A stretch of DNA of 48,292 nucleotides, from the NCBI GenBank assembly GCA_040753015.1, contig JBFMHM010000008.1, forward strand, positions 11,154-59,445, in the 5' to 3' direction. The stretch is from Candidatus Omnitrophota bacterium (lineage in GTDB: Bacteria > Omnitrophota > Gorgyraeia > Gygaellales > JBFMHM01). This document shows, piece after piece, positions 1,890 to 47,533 of this stretch (position 1 is the stretch's first letter; the number at the start of each line of letters is the position of its first letter). Position numbers and translations under genes: made by a program. The notes under the pieces are model-generated. The model worked only from the letters and a program-made list of their open reading frames with translations, did not search any database and had not been told where the DNA came from.

Positions 1890-3857
1890 ATGATTTCAAT
1901 AAATAATGTTTCAAAAAATTATGGCCAGAAGATCCTTTTTGAAAACATTTCTTTTAGCATAAACAAAGGCGAGAAAATTGGCCTTATTGGCCCAAATGGT
2001 GCAGGCAAGAGCACTTTTTTTTCTTTGATACTCGGTGAAACCGAGCCTTCCGGCGGCAGTATTCAAAAAATTAAGAATATTCGCATAGGATATCTTCCTC
2101 AGGAAGCAAGTTTTAAATCCGATCAGACTGTTCTTTCAGAAATTACTGAAGGTGATAGAGAAATTCTTAATCTAGTAAAAGAAAAAGAAGAGCTTGAGCA
2201 AAAAAATAAGGCGGATTCTAACCGTTATGGAGAAATTTTGCACGAATTAGAAGTTTTGGATTATTTTGAATTAGAGCATAAGGCAAAAAAGATCCTTTCG
2301 GGCCTTGGATTTAAAGAAAAAGATTTTATCCGTCCTATAAATCAAATGAGCGGCGGTTGGCAGATGCGAACGCTGCTTGCAAAACTACTTACGCTTCATT
2401 ATGATTTTTTACTTTTAGATGAGCCAACTAACTATCTAGATTTAAATGCTGCTATTTGGTTAAAAGATTTTCTGAAAAACTATAAGGGTTCATTCTTAAT
2501 GATTTCTCATGATAAAGTATTTTTAACTGAAGTTACAAATTATACCTTGATTCTAGAAAACGGAATGATTACAAAGGTGCACGGCAATTATGAGCATTAT
2601 GAACAAATAAAAGAAGAAAAGCGTATACATCTTTTAAAACAATTTAAGGAACAGGAAAAGAAAAAGGAACAGCTTGAAAAATTTATCAGCCGTTTTCATG
2701 CACAGCCAAATAAGGCATCAAGCGTACGGGCAAAAAGGAAGTTTTTAGAGCAAATGGATGAAGTTATCCTTCCGCCAGATCCCCGCGAAAGCATTCGGGA
2801 TTTTAAGTTTCCTCAGACTAGAGCTTCCGGGCATCGTGTTATTAAGCTTGATAAGATATCAAAGGCATACGGAGATATTCAGGTATATCGTGATTTTGAC
2901 TTCGAAATTTTTAAGGACGAAAAAGCCGTTCTTGTTGGTGAAAATGGAGCAGGAAAGTCGACGCTTTTAAAAATCCTCGGCGGCATAATCAATATTGATA
3001 GTGGAAGCCGTGTAGTAGGCCATAATGTTGATATTGGATATTTTTCTCAGACTAGAATGGACGTGCTTAATCCAGAAAATACAGTTTTGAGAGAAGTCTA
3101 TTCAGCTGCGCCTGGCTTTACCTCAGAGGAAACAATTCGAACAATTCTCGGCGCGTTTTTATTTACAGGTGATGATTCAGATAAAAAAGTAAGCGTTCTT
3201 TCAGGAGGAGAAAAAAGCCGTCTTATTTTGGCAAAACTTTTAATTAATCCGCCAAATTTTTTGCTTCTTGATGAACCTACTACGCATTTAGATATCGATG
3301 CAGTAGAGGCGCTTATTAAGGCATTGAAAGATTACCAAGGAACGATATGTTTTATTAGTCATGATATTTATTTTGTTGAGTCTTTGGCTAATGTAGTTTA
3401 TGATGTTTCCGCCAAAGGCGGATCCGCCGCTGGCGGAAAAGATACCCAGGTAAAAAAATACCCTGGTAGATTTGATTATTATTTAGAGAAGAAAACAGAA
3501 GACAAAGACGAAAATCTTACGAAATCAAAAAATCACAGCAGGGAATTGCCGCAGCCATTACCTACGCAATCCCAGATCATAGCAGGGAAAAAGAAGGAAG
3601 AAGAAAAGCACAGAAAAGAACAAGAGAAAAAGCTAAAAATACATAATGATCCAATTAAACAAAAGATCGATAAGCTTCGTAAAGAAAGAGACGATCTTAA
3701 TCTAGAAAGTTATGCCAAGGCGCGCGCTTTATCAGATACTCGTGGTTATCGAGATGAAGAAACCTTAAAAGGATACGGCCGGCGTTTGAAAGAAATCCAG
3801 AATAGATTAGTTGAGATTGAGAAAGAGATAGAATTATTAAGATGTCAATTGTGGTAA
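1890..3857 (+). CDS. ABC-F family ATPase (Uup/YheS/EttA-like translation factor type) with a Lys/Glu-rich coiled-coil C-terminal tail
   Basis: Two ABC cassettes: Walker A GPNGAGKST and GENGAGKST, signatures MSGGWQ and LSGGEKSR, Walker B LLLDEPTN and LLLDEPTT. No transmembrane domain. Confidence 0.9.
   Translation: MISINNVSKNYGQKILFENISFSINKGEKIGLIGPNGAGKSTFFSLILGETEPSGGSIQKIKNIRIGYLPQEASFKSDQTVLSEITEGDREILNLVKEKEELEQKNKADSNRYGEILHELEVLDYFELEHKAKKILSGLGFKEKDFIRPINQMSGGWQMRTLLAKLLTLHYDFLLLDEPTNYLDLNAAIWLKDFLKNYKGSFLMISHDKVFLTEVTNYTLILENGMITKVHGNYEHYEQIKEEKRIHLLKQFKEQEKKKEQLEKFISRFHAQPNKASSVRAKRKFLEQMDEVILPPDPRESIRDFKFPQTRASGHRVIKLDKISKAYGDIQVYRDFDFEIFKDEKAVLVGENGAGKSTLLKILGGIINIDSGSRVVGHNVDIGYFSQTRMDVLNPENTVLREVYSAAPGFTSEETIRTILGAFLFTGDDSDKKVSVLSGGEKSRLILAKLLINPPNFLLLDEPTTHLDIDAVEALIKALKDYQGTICFISHDIYFVESLANVVYDVSAKGGSAAGGKDTQVKKYPGRFDYYLEKKTEDKDENLTKSKNHSRELPQPLPTQSQIIAGKKKEEEKHRKEQEKKLKIHNDPIKQKIDKLRKERDDLNLESYAKARALSDTRGYRDEETLKGYGRRLKEIQNRLVEIEKEIELLRCQLW
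3408..3437. repeat. In-frame 30-bp GC-rich element made of two tandem 15-bp hairpin units (TCCGCC-nnn-GGCGGA) inside the ABC-F gene
   Basis: tccgccaaaggcgga followed by tccgccgctggcgga, encoding SAKGGSAAGG. Strong GC contrast with the flanking sequence. Confidence 0.7.
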
Positions 3858-8439: not shown

Positions 8440-8548
8440 AATTGTTTAAAATTATACCACACAAGAAAAAAATATGTTATATTTATTGTATTAAGATACT
8501 ATAATAATTTGTGTGTCTTTGTGTGTCTTAATCAATCTCAGGAGAATA

Positions 8549-9355
8549 ATGTTTAAAATACTTGATAAATACGAGCTTGCACCAAAAATTCATTATTGTT
8601 TAATTGAAGCACCTTTGATTGCAAAAAAAGCAAATGCCGGCCAGTTTGTTGTAATAAGGCTTGATGAAAAAGGCGAAAGGATACCTTTGACAATCGCTGA
8701 TTTTGATGGGGAGAAGGGGGTAATTACGCTTGTTTTTCAGGAGTTAGGTAAGACAACGAGCATGTTTGCCAAAATGAAAAAAGGTGAGTATATATTGGAT
8801 CTATTAGGGCCTCAGGGGAATCCTAGTGAAATAAAAAATTTTGGGAATGTTGTAATTATTGGCGGAGGTATTGGTATTGCTCCGGTTTATCTGCTAGCAA
8901 AAACTTTAAGAGGATTAAAAAATCATGTTACTGCTATTCTTGGTTATCGTTCTAAAGAATTTATTTTTTGGCAGGATAAAATGCAGTTGGTTTCAGATAG
9001 GTTATTAATTTCTACAAATGACGGATCTTTCGGTAAAAAAGGTTTTGTTACAGATGTTTTAAGAGGAATAATAGGCAGCAATGATAAAATAGATAAAGTT
9101 TTTGCAATTGGTCCGGCCGAAATGATGAGGGCGGTTGCAGAGTTAACTAAAACAAAAAATATTTCAACAATTGTTAGCCTTAACTCGCTTATGGTTTGTA
9201 GTATGGGTATGTGCGGAGCATGTAGAGTTACGGTAGGTAAAAAAACAAAATTCACCTGTATGGATGGCCCTGATTTTGATGCAAATGAAATTGATTTTGA
9301 TGAACTGATAAAACGATTGAATACTTATAAAAATGAGGAGTGTTCTTGTAAATGA
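8549..9355 (+). CDS. nfnA: NfnA/SudB-type FAD and [2Fe-2S] subunit of NADH-dependent ferredoxin:NADP+ oxidoreductase (DHOD electron-transfer-subunit-like)
   Basis: FNR-like fold motifs (RIPLTIADFD, IGGGIGIAP) and the C-terminal Cys cluster CSMGMCGACRV...FTCMDGP. GGAG lies upstream of the ATG at 8549. Confidence 0.75.
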   Translation: MFKILDKYELAPKIHYCLIEAPLIAKKANAGQFVVIRLDEKGERIPLTIADFDGEKGVITLVFQELGKTTSMFAKMKKGEYILDLLGPQGNPSEIKNFGNVVIIGGGIGIAPVYLLAKTLRGLKNHVTAILGYRSKEFIFWQDKMQLVSDRLLISTNDGSFGKKGFVTDVLRGIIGSNDKIDKVFAIGPAEMMRAVAELTKTKNISTIVSLNSLMVCSMGMCGACRVTVGKKTKFTCMDGPDFDANEIDFDELIKRLNTYKNEECSCK

Positions 9356-10779
9356 ATGAAGAAAAAAAAGCTATCGCTATGCGCGAACAGCCAATTGAGG
9401 TGCGGATTAAGAATTTTGAAGAAGTTCCTCTAGGGTATAATGAAGAAGAGGCAATTAAAGAAGCAGCGCGTTGTCTACAATGTAAGAACAAGCCTTGTAT
9501 TAGCGGCTGTCCAGTTCATATTGATATTCCGCTTTTTATCAAACTCATACAGGAGAAGAAATTTCAGGAAGCAGTAGATGTAATTCATATGACAGATTCT
9601 TTGCCTTGTGTAACTGGCAGGGTTTGTCCGCAGGAAGAGCAGTGCCAGGTAGTATGTATTATGAATAAAATCGGCGAGCCTATATCGATAGGGCGGCTAG
9701 AGAGATTTGTTGCTGATTGGGATTTGGCAAATAGGGAGAATAAAAAGATAAACCAAGTTCCAGAAGTTTTGAGAAAAAATATCTGCCACGAAGTGGCGAG
9801 ACCTCGCCTCGGGCGGGAGAAAGTGGCTATTGTTGGTTCTGGGCCCGCAGGCCTTACTTGCGCGGCTGAGTTAATAAAGAGGGGTTTTGATGTTACAGTT
9901 TTTGAGGGGTATCATAAATTAGGCGGAGTGCTTGTTTATGGAATACCAGAATTTCGTCTTCCAAAATCAATTGTTGAGAAAGAAATTAATTTTCTTAAAG
10001 ATATGGGTGTTAATTTCATGACGAATATTCTTATAGGGAGAGTTTTAACAATAGATGAGTTATTTAAAGAAGGTTTTAGGGCAATATTTATCGGTACAGG
10101 TGCGGGCCTGCCTAATTTTATGGGAATACCAGGTGAGAATTTAGATGGTATTTATTCTGCTAATGAGTTTTTAACACGTGTTAATTTAATGAAGGCGTAT
10201 AAATTTCCCGAATATGATACACCGATAAAAAAAGGTAAGTATGTTGCTGTAATTGGTGGTGGAAATGTGGCAATGGATTCAGCAAGAACCGCAATAAGAT
10301 TAGGTGCAAAACATGTTTATTTAATTTATCGGCGTACAGAGAATGAGATGCCAGCGCGTATAGAAGAGATATATAGGGCTAAAGAAGAGGGTGTTGATTT
10401 TAAAATTTTAACTAATCCTATAAGATATATTGGGGATAACAAAGGTTTTGTTCGAGAGGTTATTTGTGTAAAAATGGAATTAGGCCGGGTTGACTCTTCA
10501 GGAAGACCGAGGCCAACTCCTATAAAAGCATCAGAATTTAGCATTGACATAGATGAAGTAATTGTGGCAATAGGCAATACTCCTAATCCTATAATTATGC
10601 GCACAACCCCAGGCCTTAGGACAAAAGAAGAAGGAGAAATTATAGTTGATGATAAATATATGACTTCTTTACCAGGTGTATTTGCCGGCGGAGATATTGT
10701 TACAGGTGCTGCAACTGTAATTACGGCTATGGGTGCGGGGAAAAAGGCCGCCGAAAATATTGATACATATCTGTGCTAA
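9352..10779 (+). CDS. nfnB: NfnB/SudA-type subunit (glutamate synthase small-chain GltD homologue)
   Basis: CLQCKNKPCISGCPV and CVTGRVCPQEEQC Fe-S motifs. Two Rossmann motifs, VAIVGSGPAGL and VAVIGGGNVAMD, plus GVFAGGD. Confidence 0.8.
   Translation: MNEEKKAIAMREQPIEVRIKNFEEVPLGYNEEEAIKEAARCLQCKNKPCISGCPVHIDIPLFIKLIQEKKFQEAVDVIHMTDSLPCVTGRVCPQEEQCQVVCIMNKIGEPISIGRLERFVADWDLANRENKKINQVPEVLRKNICHEVARPRLGREKVAIVGSGPAGLTCAAELIKRGFDVTVFEGYHKLGGVLVYGIPEFRLPKSIVEKEINFLKDMGVNFMTNILIGRVLTIDELFKEGFRAIFIGTGAGLPNFMGIPGENLDGIYSANEFLTRVNLMKAYKFPEYDTPIKKGKYVAVIGGGNVAMDSARTAIRLGAKHVYLIYRRTENEMPARIEEIYRAKEEGVDFKILTNPIRYIGDNKGFVREVICVKMELGRVDSSGRPRPTPIKASEFSIDIDEVIVAIGNTPNPIIMRTTPGLRTKEEGEIIVDDKYMTSLPGVFAGGDIVTGAATVITAMGAGKKAAENIDTYLC
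9798..9827. repeat. 30-bp in-frame GC-rich palindromic insertion in nfnB, flanked by a 7-bp direct repeat AAGTGGC (9791-9797 / 9821-9827)
   Basis: aagtggc-gagacctcgcctcgggcgggaga-aagtggc, containing the palindrome ggcgag-ac-ctcgcc. Deleting 30 bp restores ...HEVAIVGSGPAG, the canonical dinucleotide-binding start. Confidence 0.7.
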
Positions 10780-10842: not shown

Positions 10843-11628
10843 ATGGTATCAAAAAATACTATTTTGACGGAGAAACGCCTCAGAGATATAGAAGACATTA
10901 TAGCCGCTTCTGGTAAGATTGTAACCGCTTGTGATATCTATAAAGTCTTAGACAAAAAATACTCAAAATTTGTCATTAAGAAATTGGTTTATGAGCTAAA
11001 GGTTAAAGGTTGGTTTGTTCCTTTAAAACGAGGGCTTTATTTTATCTCTGATATATCATCACGCGACTTTGTAAATATTTCGCCCATTATTATTGCTGCT
11101 GCATTCGATAAAGATTCTTATGTTTCACTGGATTCAGCTTTAAGCTATTACGGGCTTTTTGAACAGATGCTGCGCAGTGTATCATCCGTAACTAAGCATA
11201 GATCTCGAAAGTATGTTTTTCAGGATAACACTTATCGCTATCTAAAAATAAACAAAAAACTATATTTCGGATTTACTACGGAAAATATAGAAGGCTGCTA
11301 TGTAAAAGTTGCTGAACTTGAAAAAGTGATTTTGGATTATTTATATTTTAAAAACGGTACTTATGCTATTGATTTATTACTAGAAAAATTACAAAAAGCA
11401 AAAGAGAAAATCAATTTTCAGAAATTCATTGACTATGCTAAAAAATTTCCCGAAGCAACCAAGCGCAAATTAGGCTTTATTTTGGATGTGCTAAAAATGG
11501 ATACAGAGGGGCTACATAAAACCATACAGACAACAGGCTATAGTAAACTAACGCCCAATTCAAAAAAATTCAATGCGAAATGGCGGTTATATTATGAAGA
11601 TAGATTTGCTAGAAAGATCTCAGCTTGA
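10843..11628 (+). CDS. abiEi: Type IV toxin-antitoxin system antitoxin, AbiEi family (wHTH transcriptional regulator)
   Basis: Size, position directly upstream of and overlapping the AbiEii-like gene, and the YVSLDSALSYYGL motif typical of AbiEi C-terminal domains. Confidence 0.7.
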   Translation: MVSKNTILTEKRLRDIEDIIAASGKIVTACDIYKVLDKKYSKFVIKKLVYELKVKGWFVPLKRGLYFISDISSRDFVNISPIIIAAAFDKDSYVSLDSALSYYGLFEQMLRSVSSVTKHRSRKYVFQDNTYRYLKINKKLYFGFTTENIEGCYVKVAELEKVILDYLYFKNGTYAIDLLLEKLQKAKEKINFQKFIDYAKKFPEATKRKLGFILDVLKMDTEGLHKTIQTTGYSKLTPNSKKFNAKWRLYYEDRFARKISA

Positions 11629-12349
11629 AATATTAAATAAGCGTGGCCCGAAATATAATTTACAAGATGCCGAAAAGGATTATTTTCTAGCAATAATCTT
11701 GAGTATATTTTATGGCTCAAAATTAAAAGATGTACTTGTTTTTAAAGGCGGCACAGCTATTTATCATTGCTATTTAGGCCAGATTCGCTTTTCAAAAGAT
11801 TTAGATTTTACTGCGACAATTAAACTAAAACTGCACGACATAGAGAATTTATTTTCTGGCTTTGGTATATTTAAATTGAAGAACGCAGAAGAGAAAAAAT
11901 TCGGATTAGCTTTTTCTTTGCAGTATCGCGGTATATTGGCTCAAGCCGATACAATAGAGGTGGATATAAACACAAATCAAAAAGTACTACTTAAACCAAA
12001 AATAATGGAGTACAAGAATTATTATGGCGTTAAACTTTTATGTCCGGTTATGGATAAAAATGAAATTATCGCCGAGAAAATACGTACGCTTAATGATAGA
12101 GCAAGGCCGAGGGATTCTTATGATTTGGTAATATTGCAGAAAAAATTAGGATTGAATATCGATGAAGCATTGGTATTACTGGCGAAGAAGGAGATGTATA
12201 TACCTTTAAATAAAAAGAATATTACTGAAAATATAAAGATATCTTTAGAAAGATTTGATAACGAAATGGAAGAGTTGTATTATCGCGAGAAGATAACCAA
12301 AGAAGAAATAAAGGGCTTTTCGAATGAATTATTGGAAAAGATAAAGTAA
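11594..12349 (+). CDS. abiEii: Nucleotidyltransferase toxin, AbiEii/AbiGii (DUF1814) family
   Basis: VFKGGTAIYHCY...RFSKDLDF (NTase G-G-[ST] and D-x-D motifs). EKIRTLNDRARPRDSYDL is typical of the family. The ATG at 11594 overlaps the antitoxin gene by 35 nt. Confidence 0.75.
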   Translation: MKIDLLERSQLEILNKRGPKYNLQDAEKDYFLAIILSIFYGSKLKDVLVFKGGTAIYHCYLGQIRFSKDLDFTATIKLKLHDIENLFSGFGIFKLKNAEEKKFGLAFSLQYRGILAQADTIEVDINTNQKVLLKPKIMEYKNYYGVKLLCPVMDKNEIIAEKIRTLNDRARPRDSYDLVILQKKLGLNIDEALVLLAKKEMYIPLNKKNITENIKISLERFDNEMEELYYREKITKEEIKGFSNELLEKIK

Positions 12350-12366: not shown

Positions 12367-12415
12367 GTGCGGGGAAAAAGGCCGCCGAAAATATCGATAC
12401 ATATCTGTGCTAAAA
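12367..12415. repeat. 49-bp direct repeat, right copy (orphan duplicate of the nfnB 3' end)
   Basis: 48/49 identical to 10733-10781. It lies in the intergenic region after abiEii. Confidence 0.95.
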
Positions 12416-47435: not shown

Positions 47436-47533
47436 TGTAAGCGTTTGGCGGATGTAACCGTCCGCCACTAAACACTGGCGAGACGCATCTTCATCTCGCC
47501 GAAAATCAGGCGGATGAAAGCGCTTACATTTTT
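47436..47533 (+). terminator. GC-rich compound stem-loop element: an outer 8+3-bp stem encloses two hairpins and is followed by TTTTT. Possible operon terminator, REP-like element or small structured RNA.
   Basis: tgtaagcg (47436-43) pairs with cgcttaca (47521-28). ggcgga (47447-52) pairs with tccgcc (47461-66). ggcgag (47477-82) pairs with ctcgcc (47495-500). A second ggcggatg copy is at 47509-16 and a T-run at 47529-33. Confidence 0.5.

Follow-up and report, generated by a model that had tools for sequence, protein, structure and literature searches.

Within a stretch of 48,292 nucleotides from the Candidatus Omnitrophota contig JBFMHM010000008.1 (the window, by which the whole of this stretch is meant), the gene nfnB, at positions 9352 to 10,779 of the plus strand, contains a GC-rich segment of 36 bp. 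Judging from sequence comparisons, this segment is probably a copy, now diverged, of a GC-rich repeat that is dispersed and forms a double hairpin. An earlier inspection of the letters without database searches (the sequence-only reading) had proposed that a miniature GC-rich palindromic element, similar to repetitive extragenic palindromic sequences (REPs) or Rickettsia palindromic elements (RPEs), landed in frame in this gene. The presence of the core at about 66 unrelated loci, the in-frame copies among them and a pair of alleles with and without the repeat all support that proposal. The size, the excision product and the target-site duplication that it had assigned to the element do not hold, as detailed below.

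The nfnB Linker

The product of nfnB (475 amino acids, gene intact) is a full-length protein of the NfnB/GltD type, as had been read from the letters (TIGR01316, 592 bits). It aligns over residues 7–474 with the NfnB of T. maritima (PDB 4ylf_B, 1.1e-169) and is annotated as the large subunit of an NADH-dependent ferredoxin:NADP oxidoreductase or as GltD-like. For comparison, the 120 best NfnB homologues were collected, mostly from metagenome-assembled genomes (MAGs) of Candidatus Omnitrophota; all linker counts refer to 119 sequences. The linker was defined as the stretch from the ERF motif to VA(V/I)(V/I)GSGPAGL; no other part of the protein varies as much, its length ranging from 22 to 42 residues. 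It comprises 26 residues in 80 of the homologues and 38 in the NfnB of the window, and the alignment asked for by the sequence-only reading reveals a segment of 12 residues that is missing from all 119 homologues. In several relatives the linker ends in RKNIKVA, where the window reads RKNI-CHEVARPRLGRE-KVA.

The nucleotide junctions of two relatives, AGG AAA AAT ATC|AAG GTC GCT (L001) and GCA AAA AAT ATA|AAG GTT GCG (L002), set against AGA AAA AAT ATC|TGC CAC GAA GTG GCG AGA CCT CGC CTC GGG CGG GAG|AAA GTG GCT in the window, place the insert at 9784–9819 on the plus strand (36 bp, 12 codons, 72% GC). Its end bases differ from the adjoining flank bases; therefore, the boundaries cannot be slid and no duplication is present. 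Conceptual removal of these 36 bp restores a linker of 26 residues and puts a K at −1, as in 97/119; the resulting tetrapeptide KNIK is that of seven homologues, and the common "...KNIK|VA.VG" junction is regained. The segment is foreign to its surroundings in composition: the patch at 9792–9820 has 83% GC in a window of 34% GC, a contrast already pointed out in the sequence-only reading, and GC at third codon positions is 0.75 in the insert versus 0.26. The 12 insert codons have the lowest mean codon frequency among 13,248 twelve-codon windows from the 41 open reading frames (ORFs) of the window. Taken together, these alignments and compositional features make it probable, jointly with the family membership discussed below, that 9784–9819 represents a single lineage-specific in-frame insertion in a variable linker.

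In NfnB, this linker is the connection between the iron-sulfur domain at the N-terminus and the Rossmann domain that binds flavin adenine dinucleotide, and the insert lies just before β-strand 1. In an AlphaFold2 model built from 72 aligned sequences (mean predicted local distance difference test, pLDDT, of 85.7), the insert residues 145–156 are predicted as coil between a helix (138–146) and a strand (157–161, KVAIV), with a block pLDDT of 56–61. They would thus form a low-confidence loop. Solved NfnB structures align with gaps at this stretch. Three other NfnB homologues of about 55% GC, encoded at L116 1501–2943, L117 115–1551 and L118 1501–2919 (P0098, P0092 and P0084), carry different extra segments in the same linker. 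Those segments are strongly hairpin-forming, for example CCTCACCTT...AAGGTGAGG with −40.5 kcal/mol over 90 nt. The nfnB linker seems to be repeatedly hit by, or tolerant of, insertions.

A Family of Double-Hairpin Repeats

A first scan, with a single genome taken for each species, looked for the arms TGGCGAGAC, CTCGCC and GGCGG separated by free loops. These are the arms common to the two copies in the window, the one in nfnB and an intergenic one described below. It returned 11 matches, six of which lie in genomes of 64–69% GC, share no further feature and look like chance hits. The other five occur in MAGs of 43–51% GC, one from Omnitrophota and four from Phycisphaerae/Sedimentisphaerales (with L007 and L009 in a single MAG). 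The compact form seen in nfnB (TGGCGAGACCTCGCC, 3–5 nt, GGCGGG) and a (T)CCGCC arm upstream are present in all five. A metagenome scan with this compact core gave 99 stretches, which correspond to 66 distinct loci after dereplication by flanks and restriction to less than 62% GC; many of these lie on sediment and groundwater contigs. By a rough estimate, well below one chance match is expected in DNA of moderate GC content.

While the stems are fixed by the search pattern, other features of the loci are not. TCCGCC is located at exactly −8 to −3 in 48 of the 66 loci, outside the search pattern, and is preceded by G in 41; the remaining 18 have no canonical first arm or a long left loop. Loop 1 reads TT in 37 loci, and loop 2 occurs in 45 different sequences, mostly of 4 nt. 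Alignment of the copies gives a canonical unit of 33 nt, TCCGCC-TT-TGGCGAG-AC-CTCGCC-N4-GGCGGG. All four arms contain GGCG/CGCC and, because they share it, can form two hairpins in tandem or, alternatively, one inner hairpin enclosed by an outer stem. The unit is open in all six reading frames. Most copies are intergenic, and in two genomes (L007/L008) an intergenic copy has been retained at orthologous sites. A minority has a long left loop with an extra small hairpin (L011, L084, L095, L103 and others).

The unit does not correspond to a catalogued family: Rfam searches of the window and eight family loci returned tRNAs only, and the literal motif strings had no match in a text collection of 8.4 million papers. 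Exact 19-mers and 22-mers of the nfnB insert were absent from viral contigs. Two viral matches to a looser core were judged to be chance, as both are in high-GC contigs and have no first arm. A target-site consensus, (G)AAA(G), was likewise considered and rejected. It applies to the right flank of the copies in nfnB and in the ABC-F, LigT and HI0933-like genes introduced below only, and the other copies in genes and the intergenic majority (T.AATCCGTG) differ.

Three further observations concern the surroundings of the repeats. Canonical intergenic copies are flanked left and right by arrays of repeats of about 10 nt, (T)TAATCCGTG / AATTCGTG / AATCAGTG (L017, L027, L029, L049, L064, L088, L100 and many other metagenome loci). 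In the contigs concerned, the arrays are an abundant repeat system of the intergenic DNA in their own right. At L095 (approximately 2430–2532), a copy with a long left loop immediately adjoins a tRNA gene at its 5' end (2461–2532; Rfam tRNA match, 72.7 bits). Finally, the primase/helicase-like protein encoded just downstream of the copy at L011 (2611–4353) has the peptide SPNGSA(V/E)AS twice, which may be a translated repeat.

In-Frame Copies and Exact Insertion

At 19 of the 66 loci, a reading frame stays open across the unit, and for seven in-frame loci Pfam domains identify a real gene. The peptide contributed is SAFGETSPLGG in a LigT protein, SAVGETSPKGG in a Mur ligase, where it is located between the middle and C-terminal domains, and SAFGETSPAGG in an HI0933-like flavoprotein. 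A leucyl-tRNA synthetase carries the unit just past its editing domain. Two HEAT-repeat proteins contain one as well, in one case in reverse orientation, and a further copy lies at the N-terminus of a BcrAD/BadFG ATPase, possibly upstream of the true start. In nfnB, the family core is read in another frame (VARPRL). The proteins that contain the unit are thus unrelated to one another, and it is read there in three frames and in both orientations.

The flavoprotein provides alleles with and without the unit. Among its relatives, P0121 (96% identical) has the 11 residues, P0122 lacks exactly those and P0123 has 22 residues at the site. In DNA, the filled allele reads gggtcacc|TCCGCCTTTGGCGAGACCTCGCCTGCGGGCGGG|gaaatactg (L041) and the empty one gggtcacc|gaagtgctg (L119). 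At 95.9% identity between the two genes, the difference at the site is exactly 33 nt, with no duplication. In a third allele (L120), a second copy of 33 nt is present between bases 2 and 3 of loop 2 of the first copy. Because of these three alleles, the unit ends are fixed, entry proceeds without duplication, base loss or junction homology, and nesting occurs in the unit's own loop. Across these loci, the hairpin unit is seen to insert precisely and without duplication, and in both orientations; its targets are genes, intergenic spacers and its own loop.

The same protein family also shows other length variation. Relatives of the HI0933-like flavoprotein (P0121–P0133) vary between 411 and 483 amino acids via several other short lineage-specific insertions. 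One of these, SASRLAGQAD, encoded by DNA that contains the palindrome GTCCCGC-CTT-GCGGGAC, occurs in P0123 and in P0128, at two distinct positions, and others read GLPVRATRTQT, NPTDPDVSSGREPGTG and KAMGSNNTLPSPSRLS. This suggests further families of hairpin elements.

Divergence of the nfnB Copy and Relatives in the Window

The nfnB insert reads TGCCAC-GAAG-TGGCGAG-AC-CTCGCC-TCG-GGCGGG-AG. Its segment 9794–9817 (plus strand, as are all features described here) is homologous to arms 2–4 of the family (TGGCGAGAC CTCGCC tcg GGCGGG) and equals the consensus except for a second loop of 3 nt instead of 4. For a profile based on 41 of the family's copies, all of them from other organisms, this segment is the top match in the window (positions 9–33 of 33, 21 bits, E 1.9e-5). 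A structured covariance model, in turn, has its top match at the perfect inner hairpin GGCGAG-AC-CTCGCC at 9795–9808 (20 bits) and recognises only this part of the copy, because arm 1 cannot pair with arm 4. The arm TCCGCC expected two bases upstream of TGGCGAG is not encountered; TGCCAC-GAAG is found at that place. As part of a left near-palindrome of 15 nt, TGCCAC-GAA-GTGGCG (9784–9798), it takes the position of arm 1, and the centroid fold shows two hairpins. An alternative pairing of arms 3 and 4 forms a right near-palindrome of 15 nt, CTCGCC-TCG-GGCGGG (9803–9817), with five Watson–Crick pairs and one T.G pair. Two bases (AG) follow arm 4, and the copy has three extra bases in total. As in the family, its junctions are unambiguous (ATC|36 bp|AAA) with no end repeats, although its length is 36 nt rather than 33. 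TGCCAC may equal the TCCGCCAC that precedes the left loop of the intergenic copy, minus two C. Considered together with the insertion itself, these features make the nfnB copy probably a variant or decayed 36-nt member of the family, and it may be old and decaying.

The window contains seven perfect GC-rich hairpins with a stem of at least 6 bp versus 0.67 expected. GGCGAG..CTCGCC is present only in the nfnB patch and at 47,477 (in none of 100 shuffles), consistent with the core that the sequence-only reading had recognised as common to nfnB and an intergenic element at 47,476–47,513. This intergenic relative lies after fabG (47,446–47,514). Its four arms follow each other as in the family, but the loops between them are enlarged and a further arm lies upstream (TGGCGGA..TCCGCCA at 47,446–47,467, TGGCGAGAC at 47,476–47,484, CTCGCC at 47,495–47,500 and GGCGGA at 47,509–47,514). 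Its long loops account for its weak profile matches. The surrounding 98 nt (47,436–47,533) adopt a GC-rich multi-stem fold of −24.5 kcal/mol (z = −4.75) followed by TTTTT, and the element may double as a terminator. A low-stringency BLAST search of the window with the 36-mer found nothing further than a 9-mer at 47,476.

A sister element of 30 bp is found at 3408–3437, within a gene for an ABC-F ATPase (1890–3857). It consists of two tandem perfect palindromes of 15 nt, TCCGCC-AAA-GGCGGA and TCCGCC-GCT-GGCGGA, translated in frame as SAKGGSAAGG, and corresponds to an exact gap of 10 residues in the HMMER alignment with E. coli YbiT. Its fold has a z-score of −4.25, its minus strand shares TCCGCCTTTGGCG with the first 13 nt of the family, and it is the second-best profile match in the window (E 0.023).

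In the neighbourhood of nfnB, an nfnA-like gene lies upstream (8513–9355), with its stop overlapping the nfnB start. The 3' end of nfnB (10,749–10,758) is repeated approximately 1.63 kb downstream at 12,383–12,392 (CGCCGAAAAT, BLAST), and the repeated ends enclose two ORFs (10,843–12,349).

Origin of the Insertion and Alternative Explanations

Several points weigh against the interpretation of the nfnB insert as a family member. The copy is noncanonical, with TGCCAC instead of TCCGCC as its first arm and 36 nt instead of 33, and it folds only weakly better than shuffled sequences (z of about −1.8 to −2.2). The family was retrieved with a pattern derived from nfnB, which makes the identity in arms 2–4, the profile E-value and the score of the covariance model partly circular. 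Independent support is given by the number of loci and by those features that lie outside the search pattern. The nearest NfnB relatives are 74–75% identical to the window protein, and the locus is known from one sample. An exact look-up of this NfnB in the contig collection had no match (it forms a singleton cluster), and the window's own repeat copies were not among the matches of the genome-contig or metagenome-contig scans. Lastly, no mobilising enzyme was found among the proteins encoded within 5 kb of the 66 loci, where only an HNH-AP2 gene recurs. Such homing-endonuclease-like genes (109–237 amino acids) are located 0.2–2.5 kb from the copy at five of the 66 loci (L023, L033, L042, L049 and L094) and make a weak candidate for a nuclease that moves the unit or travels with it, a lead rather than an association. 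Genes for REP-associated tyrosine transposases (RAYTs) were also absent from these flanks, although RAYTs are single-copy and need not adjoin their repeats.

The alternative that survives best, though we regard it as unlikely, is a repair or replication patch, in which a template switch or gene-conversion tract from another hairpin copy (e.g., 47,446–47,514) would have been helped by short homologies such as AAAG and GTGGC. The two copies in the window do share TGGCGAGAC, CTCGCC and GGCGG, followed by R-W-GAAAG, and GTGGC/GCCAC is present three times around the site. Such copying would also fit the lack of a transposase among the proteins near the copies, and the noncanonical length could be a copying scar. 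Yet the loops of the intergenic copy are much longer, so that it is not a direct template, the canonical family inserts as an exact unit with no junction microhomology, and the ends of the nfnB insert have no homology to the flanks.

Very unlikely is the origin favoured by the sequence-only reading, namely classical transposition of an element of 30 bp (23 bp plus one repeat) with duplication of a 7-bp target, AAGTGGC. The letters themselves were described correctly: aagtggc at 9791–9797, an interior of 23 nt, gagacctcgcctcgggcgggaga, at 9798–9820 and aagtggc again at 9821–9827, in frame within the ORF of 9352–10,779 (9790–9828 reads gaagtggcgagacctcgcctcgggcgggagaaagtggct). The 7-mer thus occurs twice, 30 bp apart, and the proposed excision product HEVAIVG is conceivable, one homologue having E at −1. 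However, nucleotide and protein alignments put the left 7-mer within the 36-bp insert, while the homologue junctions identify the right one as native codons, (A)AA GTG GC(T), for the K-V-A that opens β-strand 1. Excision of 30 bp would leave a rare linker length of 28 residues (7/119), an E at −1 (1/119) and an otherwise unseen "CH". Direct 7-mer repeats spaced 20–40 bp apart are common, with 166 in the 48-kb window (eight with at least four G/C), and the repeat does not exceed chance. The filled and empty alleles of the family (L041/L119) do not show a duplication either. On these sequence comparisons, the aagtggc repeat is judged to be coincidental.

A selected functional module, such as an mRNA structure that pauses translation between domains, a protein loop of NfnAB or a binding site, is slightly less probable again. 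The position exactly at a domain boundary, the different hairpin-rich extra segments of other NfnB lineages at the same linker and the retention of an intergenic copy at the orthologous sites L007/L008 would agree with a function. Such a role fits poorly with the absence of the segment from 119 of 119 homologues, with the same unit occurring in unrelated proteins in three frames and both orientations, and with the low confidence of the loop in the AlphaFold2 model; recurrent insertions in a linker are, moreover, expected from a tolerance filter. Least probable of all is that the segment is native, fast-evolving linker or an error of assembly whose likeness to a palindrome arose by chance. The linker does vary more than the rest of the protein, and the 36 bp are known from assembled sequence alone. 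Against this, the segment agrees at 21 specified bases with the family of about 66 loci, its base composition and codon choice are extreme, the reading frame is unbroken and the window contains two sister elements.

Under the preferred interpretation of a family copy, the repeat would be a REP-like non-autonomous unit, mobilised in trans by an enzyme of the HUH/RAYT type or another nuclease that recognises the hairpins in single-stranded DNA. It enters as an exact unit with no target duplication and can nest in the loop of an earlier copy. Within genes, selection would retain only those copies that have a length divisible by three, contain no stop codon and lie in tolerant loops. The nfnB copy would have survived as it keeps the reading frame (36 nt being divisible by three), contains no stop in any frame and lengthens a flexible loop by 12 residues; the insert is most likely neutral passenger DNA. 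We hold the movement in trans by a hairpin-recognising enzyme with far less confidence than the family membership itself, as an enzyme acting on single-stranded DNA is what we infer rather than something read from the data. A broader proposition is more speculative still and, in our view, doubtful. Together with its sister elements (TCCGCC-N3-GGCGGA palindromes of 15/30 nt and further ones from the same genes), the 33-nt unit might constitute an undescribed class of ultra-small hairpin elements common to Planctomycetota, Omnitrophota and neighbouring uncultured phyla. These would target single-stranded DNA, loops of older copies among it, and insert exactly, with no tag and no duplication, by a mechanism unlike that of RAYT/GTAG REPs, and would lead to a steady gain of loops at the domain linkers of essential proteins.

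The filled and empty alleles fix the boundaries of the unit to the base, and the unit spans at least two uncultured phyla with host genes that include nfnB, leuS, a murF-like gene and ligT. For annotation, such inserts account for odd GC-rich loops with rare codons in proteins of AT-rich MAGs, which should not be taken for functional motifs. For the biology of mobile DNA, the unit offers a very small substrate for tracing the moving enzyme. For protein evolution, the family marks linkers that tolerate 11–12 additional residues.

Relation to Known Repeats

The kind of element is already known: REPs of the GTAG/CGTC superfamilies are palindromic units of 20–40 bp, some of which lie wholly within ORFs of known proteins, and RPEs occur in frame in genes (Di Nocera, De Gregorio & Rocco 2013, PMC3733652). 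Insertion of hairpin units with no duplication is also known for single-strand HUH transposition, as in IS200/IS605 and for RAYTs with REPs (PMC3733652). The 33-nt unit resembles REPs and REP doublets forming hairpins (REPINs) in being a short (20–40 bp), GC-rich and dispersed palindrome that is mostly intergenic and often forms paired hairpins. Further similarities are the conserved stems with variable loops, the presence of some copies in ORFs and the absence of target duplication that is expected for HUH single-strand transposition. Unlike in REPs, the tags GTAG, CTAC, CGTC and GACG are found neither in the 36-nt nfnB insert nor in the 33-nt consensus. The unit is a single 33-nt module of four arms that nests in its own loops and, in contrast to classic proteobacterial REPs, is found in MAGs of Planctomycetota and Omnitrophota.

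RPEs are roughly 100–150 bp in length. They were described by Ogata et al. in frame in functional Rickettsia genes (cited in PMC3733652 and PMC10969869), and their consensus carries a CGTC end (PMC3733652). The nfnB insert is similar in that a palindromic repeat lies in frame in a functional gene and adds a tolerated peptide. It differs by a unit of only 33–36 nt, by the lack of CGTC (sequences being compared by tags only) and by its occurrence in phyla other than that of Rickettsia.

MITEs, or miniature inverted-repeat transposable elements, usually make target-site duplications. Their length is 70–300 bp, with terminal inverted repeats of 15–30 bp (PMC3733652). Like MITEs, the 33-nt unit is a short non-autonomous repeat that is presumed to be moved in trans (PMC10969869, PMC3733652), but with 33–36 nt and no target duplication it does not match them. 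Hairpin elements of mitochondria offer another parallel, at the level of description only, as short GC-rich hairpins in AT-rich genomes. The GC clusters and double-hairpin elements of fungal mitochondria are short GC-rich hairpins that invade AT-rich genomes and occasionally coding sequence. Repetitive hairpin-forming elements are reported for sponge mitochondria as well (PMC2800124). Unlike the 33-nt unit, these elements are organellar and have different sequences. Against this background, the tagless four-arm unit of 33 nt, its base-exact insertion with no duplication, its self-nesting and its occurrence in both Planctomycetota and Omnitrophota appear to be undescribed.

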